A DNA stretch of 54,981 nucleotides from a virus (Duplodnaviria > Heunggongvirae > Uroviricota > Caudoviricetes), in the IMG/VR virus record IMGVR_UViG_2875697941_000003. One strand, given 5' to 3'. Numbering within the stretch: the stretch's first letter is position 1; the number at the start of each line of letters is the position of its first letter. Both the position numbers and the translations under genes were made by a program. Under the pieces are notes generated by a model, which searched no databases, was not told where the DNA came from, and was given only the letters and a program-made list of their open reading frames with translations. Below are positions 1,881 through 26,686 of this stretch, piece after piece.

Positions 1881-4800
1881 TATGCAAGCCTCACAATATA
1901 GTTAAATGCGATGTTTTTGACGGTGTTTTCCGCNTTACCAGCAGCGTTAACGGTGATGGTGTGTCCATGTGAACCAATCGCAACGGAGTGCGTATGAGCA
2001 CCAATACCGACAGTATGCGCGTGTGCACCTGCAGATGCTGCTGTGCCGGACAGTGANTGGCTATGATTACCATCTGTACTGGTATTNGCTAACCACCCCG
2101 TAGACATACCTACTGAGCCTTGTACACCCCAGGTATTTTGACCTGAGCTTGTATAACCATATTGATAAGTATCTTTAAAAACACTGGGGTTAAATCGACG
2201 GCCATCTCTATGGCTGTGATTACCAGCTGCATTCGTGCTGCCACNNNNNNNNNNNNNNNNNNNNNAGCCTTGTACACCCCAGGTATTTTGACCTGAGCTT
2301 GTATAACCATATTGATAAGTATCTTTAAAAACACTGGGGTTAAATCGACGGCCATCTCTATGGCTGTGATTACCAGCTGCATTCGTGCTGCCACTTAAAC
2401 TATGAGTATGCGCACCAGTGTTATTCGTGGATTTAGTGCCGTAATCAAACGATGATGTGGTTTTCGTACCCAAATCCGTACTGGATACGCTGGCGCTGTG
2501 GGTGTGCGATTTAATGCCGTCCTGTTCCTGAGACAATACGGCACGACCACTGGCGGGCTTGCCCTTAATCGTCCAGCCACGCATATCAGGGATCACGCCT
2601 GACGGATAAGCGGCTGCAAGTTTCGGGTAAGCAGATTTGTCAAAAGTCTGCCCCTGCATCAGGGCATAACCAGACGGAACGGTATCTGATGGCCACGGGA
2701 TTGGTGCGCCGACTGGGTAGCTTTCTGGTGGAAGATTTTTCGAGGTATAAACTTCTGCCCAGTCTTCCTCAAAACCATAACCGTCTCTTGAAGAACGGTA
2801 GAACAGACCACCATTTCTGTAATGCGCCTTCATCTGCAGGGTCCGGCAACTTCCGACTCCGGTATAGAAGTTAACCAGAATATAGCTGTCGCCAGAGCGG
2901 GTGACATTGTAAGCGCCTGATTCGGCATTCCAGGGAACGCCACCATCCGCATCGGCATATGTATCCGTTGCCCTTCTGGCAAAAGCAGCCACATGCGCGG
3001 CGGTTAAAGTAATATCTTTTGAACCATCAAACTCAACCCCAGAAACCAGTCTTGGCGTTTGCAGCTTTGTTGCTGTCAATGCGTTACCGTTCAGACTTGC
3101 AGACAGCTTGGTTCCAATAACCAGTTCGCCGGTTGCGTTATCAATAGCAAACGGTCTTAATGTATTCCATCCACCATAAACATCACCTTGATTGGTAAGC
3201 AGCAGGTAAGTTTTAGCGCCATCATTACGCCATAATGCCCCATACTCCCCACCTATCATTCGAATCTGATTACCACCACGCGCTACAATTTCGTCTGTGG
3301 CAAAAAGTTTTTTGCACGACAAGTTATCGTTAACGATTAACGAATGAGACTCATAAAAACCACGCCCACTCTTAAAATCAAGGATAACGTCCGCCGCGAT
3401 ACATTCAGTCGCTGGATTTGTTGCCCCAAACTTATAGGTCGTATCATTAACAACGAGATCAGCACCAGGTGCGGATATTGACAGGCCATCTTCGATAAAC
3501 GCAAAAACAGGGAAAGCAGCGCCATCAACATAGAACACAGAGCGCAAATCATCGCCCTTATTACTCATCATTATTGAGTGGATGGCTCGTTCATTGTTTT
3601 GATATTGCCAGAACATTCCATAAGCATAACGCCCCCTGTCAGTCCAGCCACCAGGCATAACAAATCCGTTAAACTCGCAGTTATTCATCGGATCGCCTGC
3701 GGTTCGCGTTGCCGTGGTGATAATGACCCTTGATGCCAGTTCGCTTACTGAGCCAGCAGAACGCATAACAACAACAGGGTAATATTTTCCAGATGTTGCA
3801 CCTGCAGGAGCGTTAACCCGCACATAACGCATACCACGCTTATCAGCAAAGTCTGTTTTACTGACCGCGTTAATGTTGTTCAGGAAGCGTCCCTTATCGG
3901 GTATATCAGCGCCGTTCTGGTCTTTCTGCAGACGTTTCTCTGCATTGTCATAGGCTGATTTTACTGCCTTTGGCGTTGCCGCCAGCGTTTCAGACGTGCT
4001 GTTGGTCGCGCTGCTTAGCTGGATTATCCCTTTCTGTGCTGTCGTTGCATCCTGTGCGGTGTATTTCCCGTTAGCCAGGTCATACGCGGCCTTAACGGCT
4101 TTTGGCGTTGCCGCCAGTGACTCGGAAGTGCTATTGGTCGCACTGCTGAGCTGTACTATCCCCTTTTTCGTCGTGCTCGCATCCTCAAGCGCCACGGCGG
4201 ATGCAATATCCTCTGCCCGTTTTGCCGCTGTCTCAGCGCGCGTTGCCGCGGATTCCGCCGTACTTTTGCTCTGAGCTGCCGCCGTCGCACTGCCAGCTGC
4301 CTCTGTCGCCTTCGTGGATGCCGTCGTGGCGCTGCCCTTCGCTGCGGACGCTTGTCTGGTCGCCTCATCTTTTGAAGCAGACGCAGATGATGCCGATGAC
4401 GCCGCCGAACTGGCGGACGATGCGGCAGCCGTTTTTGAGGATTCTGCGCTGGTTTCCGACGCTTTCGCGTTCGTCTCGGATGTCTTCGCTGCGGAAGCAG
4501 ACCTCGCTGCTGCGCTGGCCTGTACAGCGGCTTCGCCAGCCTTCGTTGTGGCTGTTGAAGCGGACGATGCAGCACTTTCTGCCGATTTTCCGGCGGCGGT
4601 GGCACTGGCTGAGGCCTGCCCGGCACTTGTTGACGCGGCACTGGCAGACGACGCAGCCGCTGTTTTTGAGCCTGCCGCAGCTGAGGCACTCTGTCCCGCT
4701 GCCGTTTCAGAAGACCTGGCGTTTGTCTCAGACGTCTTTGCCGCCTTCGCGGAATTGCCTGCCGCCGTTGCCGAGGAAGCGGCACTACTGGCGCTTGATG

Positions 4801-12387: not shown

Positions 12388-12725
12388 CAGATCACCACTT
12401 CGTCAAACTGACACGAAAAATCGGTATAGGTGATATGTTCTGTCGCTGACCACGTTCGACACACCACTCTGATTTTTCTGTTAATACCCGGCGGGCGCCA
12501 AAAAAAAGATTTATAGCCTTCATGCCGGGCTAAAAATTTTTCAAATGAATCACGTTCATTCGCCTCAACTTTGAAATCACAGGTGAAAACGCGCAGAGAA
12601 TGATTAAGTCCATTTGGACTTCGTTGCTCATAACCATCGCCAAATCTTACAGTTTTTATCGATGGTTTATTTTCTGTTTTCATTCCATCCTCTGGTAACC
12701 AGTGAAATTCTTCCGTATTAGCCAC
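12387..12725 (-). CDS. Minor tail protein M
   Basis: Lambda-M-like ([10 protein letters not shown]... / FDEVVI C-terminus); position between H and L. Confidence 0.8.
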
Positions 12726-15700
12726 TTAACATTCCCCCATCACGTCGCATATTTAACAGATTGCCCTGCACCCGCTGATCAACCATCCCCATAAGTGCTT
12801 TTATTGCCTGAGGGCCAATCTCTCCATTCTGGCCGTCATTTTGAATAGTGATTTGGTATACAGGGGCATAGGTAATATCTCCGCCTCCATTACCACTTTT
12901 ACTATTAATAGCTCTGACACCAAGAGAACCATCGGAAGTTCGTGTTAATGGCATAATGGCTTCCGGTCCAGCCTCACCAAAAACACCAGCCCCTTTTGCA
13001 AAAGCAAAAAATTGCGGGGAATCATAAATACCGTTCGAATACGTGCTCAATGACGGAGACTCATAAACACCGCCCTTTGCATTCGGAATAAATTTACTAA
13101 TAGCACTCCCGATAGTTCCTAAAATCCCCCCAGAAGAACTGTTACTAATGCTGTCGAAAATCCCAGTAATTGAAGCCTTTAATGCTATTCGACTAAGATC
13201 CGAAATCACGGAAGTAGCGAAAGAACGAAAATTTGCCTTGCCTGTCGTGACAAAATCACCCAGCGCATCGGTCATCCCATCAAACATCTGAGTCGTGGTT
13301 GATTTTATCTGCTCACTGATATCCTTAGTGTCATCCAGCCAGTTATTGAATCCCTGGGAGGCACCACTAACCCAGTCTCCTGCCTGAATATCGAGCTGCT
13401 CGTTTTTCTGTCTGACAATTTCTTTTTCCCGTTCCAGAGCATCATTCAGAGCCTGCATTTTCTCTTGAAAAACATGATCTGACATTCCACGGGATTTATC
13501 TGCATAGTCACGTTCAAGTTGCAGACGCTGATTGTTATATCCATGTTCAATCCGCAGTAATTCCTGCTGGCGTTGCTGATTTTTATCGCCAACCCCATAA
13601 CCAGCAATCTGAATATCATACCCCTGCTGACGATTATCAATCGAAGCCTGCAATGAATCACGCCATGCTGTTATTTCGGCGGATTCCTTGATTAGCCTGT
13701 TATTTTTTTCAATCGCAACATTTTTCTCCATCAACGTGGTTATTTCTTCCCGGTGTAAGAGAAGCGATTTCTGATCCTGGGTTAATTTCGATGATGGTCG
13801 TGACTCTAGGTCGGCAATCCGCTGACGCCACTTAACCAGTTCCTGTTCAGAGGAACTTAATTTAACGGTCAACTCAGCTTGTGAACTTAGTAACGCATTC
13901 TGTTGATTCAGATGATCAATCATTCGTTGGGCTGCATCATCAGAATAATCTTTCGCCTTTGGTTGCTTTGGATCTTTATAACGCTCATTTATTTGAGCGA
14001 TAAGATTATTATATTCTTCCTTTGAATACTGATTCTTTAGCTTTTCCAGTTTTGCAAGTTCACTAGCTCTCTGCTGCTCCCGGGTCTGATATTGTTTTGA
14101 AAAGGCATCTGCTCTCTGTCTGAGTTCAATTCCTTCCTGTTGTCGCTTGTTGTAATCGTTTATTGATGAATTTAGTACGTCCTGAGCAATTTTTTCTGCT
14201 TGAAGTACGCCCAATTGCTGCTTTAATCGTGCCAGCCTTTTATTTTGAGCTCCGCCATCTCCAATGCCACCTAACCCGAAAACTCCGGATCGGGTATTTT
14301 TTTCTATTTCATCAATTTGACGGAGAACATCTGAGATTTTTTGATCAAGGGAGGCCTCACGGCCAATATCCAGCATGGAATCCCATGCCCATTTTGCGGA
14401 GTCTGCGACAGCTTTCCATGCAGTCTCAAGATAACCAAGATTTTCTTTAATCTGGTTGGTGCGCTGGATCATTGAGGATGAGTATTCTTCTGTCGCAATG
14501 CGGGCGGCCTCCTGCTGGTTCCCTTCATCCTGTAGCGCCTTAATCTGGTTATAAGTCGCAAGTGTCAGAAAATGGTACTGATCATTAAGTTTTGATATGG
14601 CACTGACAGGATCCTTTGCAATTTCATTGAAGTCATTAACCAGTTGTTCGGTTGATATTCCTGTTACTTCGCTCGTTTTTACTATCGCTGTCGTCACTTG
14701 CTCCAGCGAACTGCTCGCTACCTTTCCCGAACGCACAAGCTGATTTAATACTGCCGCCGCAGCACCAGTTGTCGAATCAGCCGCATTCCCGGCACGTTGA
14801 GCTAAATCGCCCAATTGCCCGCTGGTTGTCCCCAACTGATTTCCGGTAAGAATAAGAGATTTATTAAATTCGTCCTGCTCCTGAGAGCCTTTATAGTAAG
14901 CCAGTCCTAAGACCCCAACGGCTGCTGCGGCCAGGGTAAAAGGATTAATTAATCCCAGCACATAAGAACCTACCCCTTTGATCGCCGGGCCAATCCCACC
15001 GAACATATCTTTTAGCTGGCCGCCCTGCTGCATTAACACCATAAATGGCGACTGACCAGTGGACAACCCAACAACAATATCCGTCATTTGTGCAGGCAAC
15101 ATGCGCATAGCAAAAGCCGTTTGTTTTGCCGACATTCCGGTTTTGCTTAATTGTGATTGAGTAACCTCAAGCTCACTCCGCATAGCACGAAGTTTTCCAG
15201 AAAGCTCCTCATACATTTCAGGAGAAAGCATCCCCTTAGCTTTTGCTTCATTGAGCTGTTTCTGTTGTTCTACCAGACGATTAAAAGCAGTTCCGACAGG
15301 ATCAAGTTGAGCAATCAGACGTTGCAAAGCAACAACCTGTTCATCATGCGCTTTTGCTGCTTCTCGCTCTGCCTGAGCCTCTCCGGTAAGCTCTCGCCGT
15401 GTTTCCTGTATTTTTCGGCTATAATTCTCAAACTGAGAACCATTTATTTTCCCGGATGCAAACGCAGCATTAAGTTCATCATGCTGTTGTTCAAGATTTC
15501 TTAGCGCCGCAGCCAGAGGGTCGATCTTGTCCAGCATTCTTTGAAAGGCCTGAGCCTGCGCTTCCTGCTGGGCGGCAGCAAGTTTTCCGGCCTTCTCGGC
15601 TTCTCTCTGCGCTTGCGCAACCCCGCTCAATTCCTCTGTGGTTTCATTAAGTTTACGGACAAGAAATTCATATTCTTCTTTATCAATAAGCCCTTTATCG

Positions 15701-15951
15701 AAAAATTTCTTTAATTCAGAATAGCGTCGACCGACAGTATCAATTGCGGCACCAACTGGATCAATAGCTGCTTTTAATTTTGCGAGCGCGTTCTTCTCAT
15801 CTTCTGTTGCCTTAGTCACTTTCCCTGCGCTATTTGCAGCAGTTTCCCCAGCCTGCGTCATTTTGACTAATGAGGAGGTCAGATTGTCAGCATTATTTTT
15901 CGCTCCAGTGCTATCAATAATTATTGCGAGACGCGAGGTTTGCTCTGCCAT
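12718..15951 (-). CDS. Tail tape measure protein (H-like), 1077 aa
   Basis: Length, coiled-coil-rich composition, position between G/GT and M. Confidence 0.85.
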
Positions 15952-16116
15952 TTATTAAAACTCCTGACAACAAAAAACCCACCGCGAAGTGGGTTTCAGG
16001 CGACATAATAGTAGATATAGCGATTACGAGGCCACGCAATGCTTTTCTCCAGGAGCATCATCGATTTAATTAAAGACACCATCACATCTCTGTAACAGAG
16101 TGTACGTAATTAACAA

Positions 16117-16886
16117 CTACACACACTGCTCCTGAAAATACTGGTCATCCAGTGCAAAGATCACTGCTTCAAATTCATCGCGCTCAATCAATACCGGATG
16201 AGTGGCTAAATATTCATTTATCTCTGTCAGAGATAAAGGCAAAGGCACCCCAGCCATTCCAGCATAACGTCGGGCACGGGATATTACCGAATAGGCGTAC
16301 AACAACTCCTTAAGCACCGGGTCTATTTCTGGTTCCGGTATCGGTGGCAACCTGAGTTTTTCTCGCTTCCATCTTGCCTTTTCCCCCCTTTCTCCCCCGA
16401 ACTCCGATAACCACCGCTGGGCAGCTATGGCTTTTTTATCGTATCCTGCTTCTGCTGCTCTTTACCCTGGGCGATGCTGGCTGCTTCTGCAAGGATCTGC
16501 CAGTACAACTCTGGATTCTGCTTAAGCAGCGCGATCCCTCGTTCTGCCGTATATTCCAGTGCAACCTCAACACCATTAACCAGTTCACCAACCCCTTTCC
16601 AGTCTTTCAGCAGATAACGAGCGGCATTATCAATGAGTAAATCATCAACAGAATCCACCTCGGAAACCTTTGAAATATCAAACTCCTTCGTTCCGACGTG
16701 CAAACTGGCATCCATTTTCTCAATGTGGCGACGGATTAATGCATTACGGGAGCGATACTGATCGTTATCGCTGCTTGCCACCAACAGTTTTAACCCGTCT
16801 ACAGGTTTTAAGTCCTTCATTGGCGTAAACCAGCGTTCTCCACCAATGATAATTTTCTGATTAAGAATAAACATCCATAACCTCAT
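16117..16886 (-). CDS. Tail assembly chaperone G and G-T fusion made by -1 programmed frameshift (G = 16425-16886; T extension to 16117)
   Basis: Two overlapping ORFs between major tail and tape measure genes; T frame is -1 relative to G and open from the slippery site to 16117. Confidence 0.7.
16431..16437 (-). promoter_or_regulatory. Slippery heptamer A AAA AAG for the -1 frameshift, one codon before the G stop
   Basis: Minus-strand sequence ATA AAA AAG CCA TAG; after a -1 slip the frame reads AAA AAA GCC ATA GCT... with no stop until 16117. Confidence 0.65.
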
Positions 16887-16934: not shown

Positions 16935-17897
16935 TCAACTAATCGCCTCAGCACTGGCTTTTGCGATCACGGCAGCCGGGGAATTTTTTTTTCTGGTTAT
17001 CGTAGGTGCTTCATCTGCTGCGGTAATGCTCAATTGAACCTGGATAATGTCGCTATTACCCCCATCAGGCCATTCACCTGACACCTGAACCTTCGGGAAA
17101 CTGAAAGTGTATGCCCCCTCTCCATTCGAAAGCGTGAAGCTGAACGGAACTGTTTCTCCAGTCAGTGTTTTACTCCAGATTTCCCACGCGGCTTTAGACC
17201 ATGAAAGCGTCACCGTACCGGACGGTGTAAAAGTAGTCGGAATATTTGCTCCTGCATAAGGCGAGCCAGTCCCGATACAACGCTGTGTCTGGAGTTTGTT
17301 ATCGAACTGAATATCAAAACTGTCGATACAAAAACCGTTACCTCCGGCAACACCATTCAGGCTTACTGCTGAAACCTCCTTAAACGAATAACGTAGCTTT
17401 CCTGCACTATCCACAGGTTCGCCTTTGATAAAATTCGTATCATCGGCCTTTGATTCCCAGTCCAGTCCGGCAAAGGTTACGGTCGCTGTAATATCGCCGT
17501 CGTTAGGGATCTGCATTTTCCATGAGCCAACCTGCGCTCCTCTGACGACAGAGGCAATTCCGACATCGGACGCATAGGTCGCCAGAGAAAATGTTATTCG
17601 CTCATTCCCCATTGTCAGAGAATCGCCTGACCATTCCGCGCCGAAACAGGATGCAAGAAAATCATCATGTTGACCCCAGCGAAATTTGGTACCAACATCA
17701 CCGCCGACATCCACAGTGCCAGGCGTCGCCCCCTGAGCCATCCGGGAGCCACCAATCTCATTATTTTCGCCTTTATTCTGGGTGGGTTTTACTCCCCAGC
17801 TTGTGCGTTTTAATAAACTCCAGTCACCACTTGCTGGCGTAGTGCCTGCAACCGTCTCCCGGATAAATGCCGAGATAACCTTTGCACCTGAACTCAC
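16935..17897 (-). CDS. Major tail tube protein (V-like), 320 aa
   Basis: Position upstream of G/GT, size, Ig-like C-terminal region. Confidence 0.6.
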   Translation of the reverse strand: MSSGAKVISAFIRETVAGTTPASGDWSLLKRTSWGVKPTQNKGENNEIGGSRMAQGATPGTVDVGGDVGTKFRWGQHDDFLASCFGAEWSGDSLTMGNERITFSLATYASDVGIASVVRGAQVGSWKMQIPNDGDITATVTFAGLDWESKADDTNFIKGEPVDSAGKLRYSFKEVSAVSLNGVAGGNGFCIDSFDIQFDNKLQTQRCIGTGSPYAGANIPTTFTPSGTVTLSWSKAAWEIWSKTLTGETVPFSFTLSNGEGAYTFSFPKVQVSGEWPDGGNSDIIQVQLSITAADEAPTITRKKNSPAAVIAKASAEAIS

Positions 17898-17923: not shown

Positions 17924-18316
17924 CTAGAGCGCGCGATATGGAATTTGAAGATTAAGCTGGAACCAGCCATTCTTTTCGCCAACGGCTATTGAGGAAACAG
18001 CCTGGTAACTGAGACGATCGTCATCCTGAAACTCAAACAGTTCCCGCAATTTATCGGCTGTCTCAGTAATGAGTTTTGAACCAGAACCTGCGGGGACAAA
18101 TAACTGAATAATGATTATCCCCGTGCGATAAACAATCGGCCCCGCGCCAATTTCATTAACTCCAGCCTGCCCGGGAATATTACTTAACCGCGCCCAGATT
18201 AACTTACCGGAAGGATCGAACGTTGGCGCGTTCGGATACAATACGTCTTTTCCATCAATAATCGTCTGTGCCGTCATTCTGGAAATAACCGTATTTCTGA
18301 TTTCAGTAAACGTCAT
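17924..18316 (-). CDS. Tail terminator / tail completion protein (U-like)
   Basis: Size and position between head-tail joining genes and major tail gene. Confidence 0.5.
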   Translation of the reverse strand: MTFTEIRNTVISRMTAQTIIDGKDVLYPNAPTFDPSGKLIWARLSNIPGQAGVNEIGAGPIVYRTGIIIIQLFVPAGSGSKLITETADKLRELFEFQDDDRLSYQAVSSIAVGEKNGWFQLNLQIPYRAL

Positions 18317-24306: not shown

Positions 24307-25617
24307 TTAAATCCGAAGTGATGTGACTCTTCCGGTCGGTTTGACAATAGGGAATTGCTTAACGATGAAATAACCTCCGGCATCATTCGGGTGATCATTG
24401 CCAGATTTTTTATCAGGCTCCCCCTTATCATCCCAGATCTGTTGCTCCAGAGATTCGGCATATACCGGACAACGCTTCACATTAACTTTATAGCGACGCT
24501 CACCATTGGCATTGCAGAACATTGCATTCATTGAGTTAACGCGATCTTTTACTGGCGGGTTCGAGCTGTTCACCACAACGTTAAAACCTGCCTGCTTAAG
24601 CTGGGCTATATCCGTCGTACTTGCGTTACTTGATTTTCTGGAATCTCCGGAAGCATCTGGATAAATATAAATCTCCCTCACTTTCCGGTAATCATGCCCG
24701 TCATACAGCCAGAAGCGTTCTTTAATGAGGCGGATCATATCCGGCGTATCGTAGGCATTGATGATTTCAGTTACCGCACATGGAAGCCCCAAACGCAGCA
24801 CATGGACGATTCCCGCCATCTTTCCAACGTTAAAATCCATCCCAATATAAATCGGCTCCCCTGGCTGCTCCACTTCTTCGCAATTATTCAGTTTCCGGTC
24901 AAACTGATGGTAAACAGTACCACTTGTCAGGTTAGTAAACCGTCCTAGAAGATAGGCTTTAATCAGCTCTGGAGGGTATGATTCAAGAAGTGAAGGAATG
25001 TAATCTGCTGGCAGGTTCTTTTCATTATCGAAAGTAGATGCCTGCACCAGACCATACAGTGAGGCCAGCTCTGTTTTTTCACGCACGGCTTTAACAAACT
25101 GCTCGTAGACAAATTTGAATCCTTCCGGCGTGGTTGTAACGTCAATACCGTTGCGAAGTCCATCAATCTTATAACGCATACGCGCAATTATCTTGCGCCA
25201 CGCCGTTCTGGCTTTTTCCTTCGGCAAAATGTCCAGTTCATCCACCAGCGCATTACCAATTTTGAAACCGACGATCGTTTGTGGCTTCTCCATCGATCTG
25301 CAGATAGTGGTTCCCCGATACTGGCGTCCGTAATAAAAGTGAACCTCTTTATTTCCCTCATTAATTTTTACGTTCAATCCCCAGTCAGCAGCAACTTCTT
25401 CCACTGTAGGGTAAAAAATATCGCGAATTTGGGGATACGTTGGCGCAAAATATCCCTGATTTATACCTGGATGCTCCCAAATCCCCTTGCATATGCCGCC
25501 ACACCCAACCCATGTTTTGCCCGAGCCAAAACCAGCAATATAGGCTTTAAATTTATGGGGCATTGAAAGAAATCGCGCCTGAGGCACATTAAGCGTCGGA
25601 GAGATCATCTTCATCAC
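24307..25617 (-). CDS. Terminase large subunit
   Basis: Walker A-like GFGSGKT near N-terminus, acidic nuclease-type C-terminal half, ~436 aa, position. Confidence 0.85.
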   Translation of the reverse strand: MMKMISPTLNVPQARFLSMPHKFKAYIAGFGSGKTWVGCGGICKGIWEHPGINQGYFAPTYPQIRDIFYPTVEEVAADWGLNVKINEGNKEVHFYYGRQYRGTTICRSMEKPQTIVGFKIGNALVDELDILPKEKARTAWRKIIARMRYKIDGLRNGIDVTTTPEGFKFVYEQFVKAVREKTELASLYGLVQASTFDNEKNLPADYIPSLLESYPPELIKAYLLGRFTNLTSGTVYHQFDRKLNNCEEVEQPGEPIYIGMDFNVGKMAGIVHVLRLGLPCAVTEIINAYDTPDMIRLIKERFWLYDGHDYRKVREIYIYPDASGDSRKSSNASTTDIAQLKQAGFNVVVNSSNPPVKDRVNSMNAMFCNANGERRYKVNVKRCPVYAESLEQQIWDDKGEPDKKSGNDHPNDAGGYFIVKQFPIVKPTGRVTSLRI

Positions 25618-26683
25618 TCCTTAATCTGGCATCAACCACATTAATATTGATCGCCACAGGCTGGGGATGTTCATTATCCTCCACCGTTTCGATCTCTTTG
25701 CGCAGCTTCTGGTTCTCTATTCTGCGCCGTTCAATTTCCAGTTCCTGTAGCCGCTTATCTGCACATAATGCCCCGCCAGCAGAAAGCAAACGCAACAATT
25801 CACGCCGGGCGGCAGCCTTATCCTCCAGCAGGATCTCAACACCGTATTTTCCGAGCTTTGACCCTGCATATAATTGCCGCGCATCCCCATCAAGCAGTGT
25901 GGTATCAGCCATATAAAGCTGTCCTGTTCCCTCACCGCAGCACTTCGGGCAATCAGGATTGGGTATGGCGTTATCAACAAAGCCGAGGCCTCCATATTCC
26001 GGCTCGGGTTTACCATCTCTGGAGGCCTGTGCCGCAGCCTTATCGAATTCTGCAATATCACGCCACTGGTAGAGATGATTCTCGCCCCAGCAATAACGGC
26101 AGTTAACACGGCGAAATTGTGCCAACTGATTGGGGTCGGCCTGGACAATGGCCATCAACTGGCTCACCAGTAAATCCAGGTCTGCGGTATAGCGTTTCTG
26201 GTACTGATTGCGGAAGTAGCTGATAGCACGATAAACCCTGGCATTTCTAAGCATACGGCTGGCGTTGCTGTTAGCTGTCGCACCTTGCCCCTCATAACCA
26301 GCCAGTCGGTATGCCTCTGTCGGCTTTTTCCCCTGAGCAACCAACATGGCGAATTTTGCCTGCTGGTCAGAAATACCGAATTCATCGGGGCAGAACGAAA
26401 TTTCTTCCGTGTCCCCCTCAATCAGGAGTGCATCGGATACAGCCTTTTTTTTCTGAGATTTTCCGTTCTGCCTTTGCGCAGTCTGCGCAGTTTTTTTTCG
26501 CGCACTTTTTTGCGCAGTTTTGCGCATTTCTTTCTGCGCATTTTTCGGAGTTTTTTTGATGTAACGACGGGCTGTTGCGTAGTTCAGTCCCCTTGCTTCA
26601 CACCATGCCACCGGAGATATACCGGAGCGGGTGTATTCAGCAATATACTCCTGCTGCAACGCCCCCCAGTCCGGTCTGCTCAT
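25589..26683 (-). CDS. Terminase small subunit with extra N-terminal HTH and a Cys-rich (CxxC...CxxCC) region
   Basis: Terminase_2-type motif FAMLVAQGKKPTEAYRLAGY...ASRMLRNARV; directly upstream of TerL. Confidence 0.65.
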   Translation of the reverse strand: MSRPDWGALQQEYIAEYTRSGISPVAWCEARGLNYATARRYIKKTPKNAQKEMRKTAQKSARKKTAQTAQRQNGKSQKKKAVSDALLIEGDTEEISFCPDEFGISDQQAKFAMLVAQGKKPTEAYRLAGYEGQGATANSNASRMLRNARVYRAISYFRNQYQKRYTADLDLLVSQLMAIVQADPNQLAQFRRVNCRYCWGENHLYQWRDIAEFDKAAAQASRDGKPEPEYGGLGFVDNAIPNPDCPKCCGEGTGQLYMADTTLLDGDARQLYAGSKLGKYGVEILLEDKAAARRELLRLLSAGGALCADKRLQELEIERRRIENQKLRKEIETVEDNEHPQPVAININVVDARLRSDEDDLSDA

Positions 26684-26686
26684 CAG

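Follow-up and report, generated by a model that had tools for sequence, protein, structure and literature searches.

A probable programmed -1 ribosomal frameshift in the G/GT-type tail chaperone gene pair of a Rac-type Escherichia coli prophage

Results

Organization of the tail module

The window analyzed here, a stretch of 54,981 nucleotides from the Caudoviricetes record IMGVR_UViG_2875697941_000003 of IMG/VR, carries an intact tail module on its minus strand, with genes in the order tail terminator, tail tube, G, T and tape measure (Table 1). Two consecutive ORFs, G and T, lie between the tube and tape measure genes, the position held by lambda G/GT-type pairs. RefSeq names the surrounding genes as P22-type capsid, tail terminator, tail tube (labelled 'phage tail tube protein') and tape measure, and gives the upstream ORF, G, the name 'protein YdaY'; among the profiles that recognize the tape measure gene, Pfam TMP_2 scores 1.6e-81 and TIGR01541 scores 1.3e-64. 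T and the tape measure gene, which are expected to belong to a single late operon, are 165 nt apart, and the gap between them holds a hairpin resembling a terminator, GAAACCCAC-TTCG-GTGGGTTTT, with a run of T after it. The tail tube gene has a run of nine A (CCAGAAAAAAAAATTCC) in its 3' end, some 50 nt ahead of the stop codon. This run is long enough for transcriptional slippage; both alternative frames close there within 10-17 codons, and relatives have seven A at this position.

Table 1. Coordinates of the tail module, the overlap and related features in the window
Feature	Coordinates	Strand	Basis or remark
Tail terminator gene	17924-18316	minus	Phage_tail_terminator_5
Tail tube (major tail) gene, directly 5' of G	16935-17897	minus	Pfam Phage_tube_2, 9.4e-32
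Nine-A run in tail tube gene	16984-16992	minus	
G-like tail assembly chaperone ORF (149 aa + stop)	16874..16425	minus	PHROG 313
Last -1 frame stop (TAA) upstream of overlap	16464..16462	minus	
Overlap, 0 and -1 frames both open (34 nt)	16461..16428	minus	frame analysis
Slippery heptamer A_AAA_AAG (0-frame codons ATA AAA AAG)	16437..16431	minus	X_XXY_YYZ phase
G stop codon (TAG)	16427..16425	minus	
T part (104 codons + stop)	16431..16117	minus	phrog_1189
-1 frame stop (TAG)	16119..16117	minus	
Predicted GT fusion (252 aa)	join(16874..16431, 16431..16117)	minus	
Gap between T and tape measure gene	15952-16116		165 nt
Terminator-like hairpin	15974-15997	minus	
Tail length tape measure gene, 3' of T	12718..15951	minus	TMP_2, Tape_meas_lam_C, TMP_4, TIGR01541
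Terminase small subunit gene	25589-26686		Pfam Terminase_2, 1.2e-08
A_AAA_AAG in terminase small subunit gene	26444-26450	minus	CAG AAA AAA AAG

The G/T pair belongs to a Rac-type prophage of E. coli. Salmonella phage SPF_0923 and a set of prophage-derived E. coli phage records are 98-100% identical to this region. A search of 5,426 complete E. coli genomes matched the locus in 1,073, among them K-12 MG1655, whose Rac remnant holds the 3' 81% of the query. Its copy (L003, 2993-3727) retains the heptamer described below together with a complete T frame, both identical to those of the window, and its G has lost its N-terminus at the Rac deletion junction, where it adjoins ynaK. Some genomes encode a ParB-YdaY fusion (P0040).

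The G ORF corresponds to full-length E. coli YdaY. The ATG at 16874 has the best support as its start: a GAGG lies 6 nt upstream, and the N-terminus is kept, beginning at the same Met, in 21 homologs. This start is preferred to the first ATG, at 16886, and to the internal ATG at 16784 that RefSeq/PGAP uses for a YdaY of 119 aa (copy L002, 3167-3526). The RefSeq start lies too far downstream; homologs conserve 30 more N-terminal residues than the RefSeq protein, and the internal start was apparently modelled on the truncated K-12 gene.

What kind of proteins are G and T? G matches PHROG 313, annotated as 'tail assembly chaperone', at 4.9e-46. The PHROG 313 profile has 258 positions, and because T also matches it weakly, at positions 173-246, the family seems to include some full GT fusions. 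T itself matches phrog_1189, of unknown function, at 1.4e-36, and Pfam Phage_TAC_18 weakly, at 4.7e-4, which is under the gathering cut-off. A search of a local copy of Pfam gave no match to G, none of the NCBIfam models matches G or T, and BLASTP of G and T against lambda G and T detected no similarity. An AlphaFold model of G (pLDDT 79.9) finds no match by fold in the PDB, where G has none by sequence either. Among viral predicted structures (Foldseek, BFVD), the model has one match at E <= 0.001, to an uncharacterised protein, and annotated phage tail or tape-measure chaperones match it weakly, at E 1.4e-3 to 8e-2; TM-scores over its BFVD matches are 0.41-0.56, and several of the matches are of GT-fusion length (231-268 aa). 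Because sequence similarity to lambda is lacking, the functional analogy is founded on where the genes lie, on the annotation of the PHROG family and on a fold match of moderate strength. Synteny and family matches, together with the comparative data below, support a tail assembly chaperone pair of the G / G-T kind.

The overlap and the -1 reading frame

On the minus strand the G ORF ends ...CAG GAT ACG ATA AAA AAG CCA TAG, encoding the C-terminus ...QKQDTIKKP*. The heptamer A_AAA_AAG is in the X_XXY_YYZ phase relative to G, with a single sense codon, CCA, between it and the stop. The -1 frame is open from the first nucleotide after an upstream TAA through the whole of T, so that both frames are open together for only 34 nt, and any shift must fall inside this overlap. 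Within it, A_AAA_AAG is the sole canonical X_XXY_YYZ heptamer. The bare heptamer is not rare, with 22 copies on the two strands of the window versus 14.9 expected, but in-phase copies within long ORFs are, with 2 in 18,182 codon positions; by chance, approximately 0.001 in-phase copies would be expected in the 11 codons of the overlap. The other in-phase copy within a long ORF lies in the terminase small subunit gene and is probably incidental, because the -1 frame stops there after 8 codons.

After the predicted shift, the -1 extension comprises 104 residues, AIAAQRWLSEFGGERGEK...DDQYFQEQCV. Across 20 divergent loci the T protein is conserved from its first codon, and the alignment from the first residue reads A(I/L)(E/A)AQ.W(L/I).EFGG.E.GEKA.W.REKL.LP.IPEPEID. 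The only conserved start codon in T is an ATG at codon 58. In the window the first possible T start is a TTG at codon 27, which is not conserved, and three loci have no ATG, GTG or TTG at all before codon 58. Because T is conserved from its first residue but has a conserved start only at codon 58, the sequences indicate that full T cannot be made otherwise than by reading through from G.

Could T nevertheless be a separate protein, initiated on its own or made through translational coupling, with the heptamer an incidental feature? Public annotation takes this form: RefSeq and GenBank show YdaY and, in the T frame, a separate 'hypothetical protein' of 61-66 aa, and the ATG at codon 58 is kept in most loci. 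However, strong conservation in the -1 frame extends over the 57 residues ahead of this ATG, right up to the heptamer, several loci lack any start codon before codon 58, and neither the TTG nor the GTG starts of the window are conserved. Independent translation would also leave the conservation and covariation of the heptamer, described below, unexplained, and we regard it as very unlikely.

Conservation among relatives

A protein search with the predicted fusion returned 144 relatives, nearly all of them G alone at 57-99% identity, and the G relatives share a conserved C-terminal ...T(V/I)KKP motif. Scans of genomes and viral contigs yielded 99 loci, to which phage records added 3 more, and removal of duplicates left 62 distinct loci. 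Their hosts represent about 15 enterobacterial genera, including Escherichia, Shigella, Citrobacter, Klebsiella, Raoultella, Serratia, Pectobacterium, Pantoea, Rosenbergiella, Providencia and Erwinia.

A canonical slippery heptamer is present at the homologous codons in 59 of these 62 loci. In 54 it is formed by ATA or GTA followed by AAA AAG, and in 5 by GTG or ATG followed by GGA AAG, which creates the heptamer of lambda. Three single loci have a non-canonical P-site: GTG GGG AAG, GTC GCA AAG and, in Aurca01, CTG GAA AAG. The A-site motif A_AAG is present in every locus (62/62). The base in the wobble position of the codon before it always agrees with the heptamer type: AAA AAG is preceded by A, GGA AAG by G. 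Exchange of one heptamer for the other replaces amino acids (KK to GK, Ile to Met) and keeps the X_XXY_YYZ pattern. Such covariation is what selection on slipperiness predicts and what selection on amino acids does not.

The same variants bear on a second possible route to the fusion, transcriptional slippage, in which RNA polymerase would gain or lose an A within the A6 run and ribosomal slippage would not be involved. Six consecutive A do occur at the site, and slippage on homopolymers is a known alternative recoding route (PMC5009743, PMC3711429). Yet the run is shorter than the tracts of more than seven A reported for productive realignment (PMC3711429), and five relatives carry GGGAAAG, which has three A and can act solely as a ribosomal site. 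Because some heptamer variants have just three A, transcriptional slippage is excluded as a general mechanism. The heptamer also stays strictly in one phase with respect to the 0 frame, a property that matters to ribosomes and not to polymerase. For the locus in the window, we consider slippage by the polymerase highly improbable.

Selection can be followed across the junction itself. In a nucleotide alignment of 20 sequences, the mean column identities at the three codon positions are 0.75/0.82/0.46 for the 0 frame before the heptamer and 0.72/0.77/0.45 for the -1 frame right after it. Exactly at the heptamer, third-position variability passes from one frame to the other. Purifying selection is visible in both frames across genera. 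In intact loci the -1 extension is about 87-116 aa long. The +1 frame closes after a few to approximately 39 codons, varies among loci and shows no conservation.

The distance between the heptamer and the end of G varies within the family. From the start of the heptamer to the G stop it amounts to 10, 28, 82 or 112 nt depending on the lineage, corresponding to 1 to 35 codons. In two relatives (L018, L021) the overlap is just 16 nt long, with the heptamer still inside it. In one lineage of viral contigs (L083-L089, ~2937-3050; ~91% identity), the G stop has been lost by a change of TAG to TTG, and G gains 34 codons in the 0 frame (183 aa) with the heptamer kept. In one E. coli record, a short deletion just 5' of the heptamer has joined G and T in frame to give a protein of 240 aa. 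Proteins P0001 and P0007 are those behind the read-through and in-frame fusion observations. Some relatives (L077, L081, L084, L092-L094 and L009) have a second in-phase heptamer, G_GGA_AAA (CAG GGA AAA GAG), 30 nt upstream. It occurs in relatives with a longer overlap and is not conserved; the window has GGT AAA.

These data also speak to the idea that the -1 shift takes place elsewhere in the overlap, at a non-canonical position, or that the pair is a decaying pseudogene that no longer undergoes functional recoding. Truncation is seen in places: G lacks its N-terminus in the K-12 Rac copy, and the T frame is truncated in some loci (L045, L043 and L060). Against this, the overlap in which a shift could occur spans 34 nt in the window and 16 nt in the two relatives with the shortest overlaps, always with the heptamer inside; both frames are under purifying selection across genera; and the tail module around the pair in the window is intact. 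There is very little probability, in our estimation, that either version applies. The prophage in this particular host may still be defective and its frameshift site unused.

Overall, the comparative evidence for frameshifting, drawn from aligned sequences, is strong. The architecture agrees with the original prediction in its main points. The heptamer was said to lie one codon before the G stop in the series ATA AAA AAG CCA TAG, and it is seen there, at 16437..16431 with the stop at 16427..16425; the -1 frame was said to be open from the heptamer to 16117, and it runs to the TAG that ends at that position. The proposal that the two ORFs form a G / G-T tail chaperone pair has been borne out by synteny, by the match to PHROG 313 at 4.9e-46 and by the conserved -1 architecture.

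Stimulatory elements and proposed mechanism

In dnaX, the heptamer is flanked by a Shine-Dalgarno (SD)-like stimulator upstream and a stem-loop downstream, and shifting takes place at about 50% (PMC3711429). At the present locus, a GU-rich hairpin directly abuts the heptamer in the RNA of the window and folds no better than shuffled sequence. The downstream fold has z scores of -0.40 for 91 nt and +0.87 for 181 nt relative to shuffles, within an overall range of -0.40 to +1.3. For 20 divergent homologs, RNAalifold gives a consensus of -2.25 kcal/mol with no covariation or compensatory pairs, and the 70 nt 3' of the heptamer have a mean z of +0.16 against dinucleotide shuffles. No dnaX-like stem-loop was found 5-9 nt downstream.

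Upstream, an SD-like AGGA is located 6 nt before the heptamer, within conserved Gln-Asp/Glu codons. The optimum for such a stimulator is reportedly some 10-14 nt upstream (Larsen et al. 1994). A dnaX-like SD stimulator about 10 nt upstream was not found, and the AGGA is missing in 7 of 20 divergent homologs, these being the more distant ones. The AGGA is probably just codons.

The two nucleotides 3' of the heptamer are CC, and CC is at the same time required by the Ala codon of the -1 frame. In E. coli, A_AAA_AAG is the most shift-prone heptamer and a 3' CC the most shift-prone context (PMC5009743). Because no stimulator was found, the efficiency of frameshifting is expected to be low, probably a few percent.

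Taken together, these observations make it very probable that a programmed -1 ribosomal frameshift at A_AAA_AAG yields G and a predicted GT fusion, as in lambda G/GT. Most ribosomes would translate G and terminate at the TAG one codon past the heptamer. A minority would slip one base back while the P and A sites hold ATA/AAA and next AAA/AAG, E. coli's single tRNA-Lys re-pairing with AAA in both sites, a case of tandem slippage on a bare heptamer. Translation would then resume at GCC ATA GCT... and continue for 104 further codons, producing the 252-aa GT, a protein that we infer from the sequence of the locus. On the lambda model, G and GT, the latter through its G part, would coat the tape measure protein; GT would use its T part to recruit the tail tube protein, and neither G nor GT would remain in the virion. 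These chaperone roles are proposed by analogy.

How the ratio of G to GT might be set invites speculation. Conceivably, the repeated exchange of heptamers and the varying distance to the stop reflect host-specific tuning of G:GT to how much tRNA-Lys and tRNA-Gly is locally available. Such tuning would cover the exchange between A_AAA_AAG and G_GGA_AAG as well as the degenerate G_GGG_AAG, C_GCA_AAG and G_GAA_AAG, and stop distances of 1-35 codons. In the window, the nearby stop might itself be a stimulator, with termination one codon past the heptamer taking the place of an RNA structure. We consider this extension of the frameshift model doubtful.

Discussion

The site described here is a real but ordinary frameshift site, previously unannotated, and will not surprise a specialist; conserved frameshifts in tail chaperone genes are a standard finding (PMC5009743, PMC3711429, PMC10885494). 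None of the public records inspected (RefSeq/PGAP, GenBank and phage records) annotates slippage at the locus. A full-text literature search on ydaY or Rac frameshifting found nothing relevant; Xu et al. 2004 and Gurvich et al. 2003 might list the case, the latter (EMBO J) reportedly being a survey of A_AAA_AAG in E. coli K-12 genes that might mention ydaY.

Our understanding of frameshifting and of tail assembly is unchanged by the finding. Its chief value lies in annotation, as YdaY and its neighbour can be corrected in many E. coli genomes, and recognition of the pair as G/GT gives YdaY a function. Frameshift predictors, which at present overlook many shifts in tail chaperone genes (PMC10885494), also gain a well-supported case for training. 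Moreover, the relatives of the G/T pair offer a clean natural example of selection for slipperiness, with two heptamers alternating at the same codons.

How does the locus compare with known systems? The original prediction called the site dnaX-type. This holds for the heptamer itself, since dnaX gamma/tau uses the identical A_AAA_AAG in phase, a sequence decoded in E. coli by a single tRNA-Lys (PMC5009743). It does not extend to the stimulators of dnaX, both of which were tested for and not found at this locus. The outcome of the shift differs too, the product being shorter in dnaX and longer here.

For other phages, such as those of Paenibacillus larvae, AAAAAAG has already been proposed as the site of tail chaperone frameshifts by analogy with lambda G/GT (PMC6003738). 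There, too, the heptamer falls within the 3' part of the upstream gene for tail assembly. The hosts and proteins are unrelated to those of the present locus, and the proposal was made without comparative or covariation evidence.

The lambda G/GT tail chaperone frameshift (Levin, Hendrix & Casjens 1993; Xu, Hendrix & Duda 2004, 2013, 2014; summarised in PMC5009743) is a further comparison. The two systems differ in several respects: BLASTP detects no resemblance in sequence between G or T and their lambda counterparts, T is 104 aa long rather than 144 aa, and T is separated from the tape measure gene by the gap with its terminator-like hairpin, whereas T overlaps H in lambda. The heptamer is A_AAA_AAG here and G_GGA_AAG in lambda, and one sense codon separates it from the G stop rather than five. 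The original prediction had singled out this different slippery sequence and different position. Both are true of the window, but neither sets the family apart from lambda. The spacing is not a meaningful distinction, because it spans 1 to 35 codons (10-112 nt) among the relatives. The difference in heptamer is trivial, since some of the relatives use G_GGA_AAG.

At the same time, the likeness that had been drawn to lambda G/GT stands at the level of sequence, where the features of such a pair are all found: position, overlap, a T without a start, a slippery site, a switch of frame and relatedness to chaperones. Both systems have two overlapping ORFs between the major tail and tape measure genes, a -1 shift at a heptamer ending in A_AAG near the end of G, and a downstream ORF without its own start, and this locus resembles lambda also in that no conserved RNA stimulator was detected. 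In some relatives of this locus, lambda's exact G_GGA_AAG occupies the same codons.
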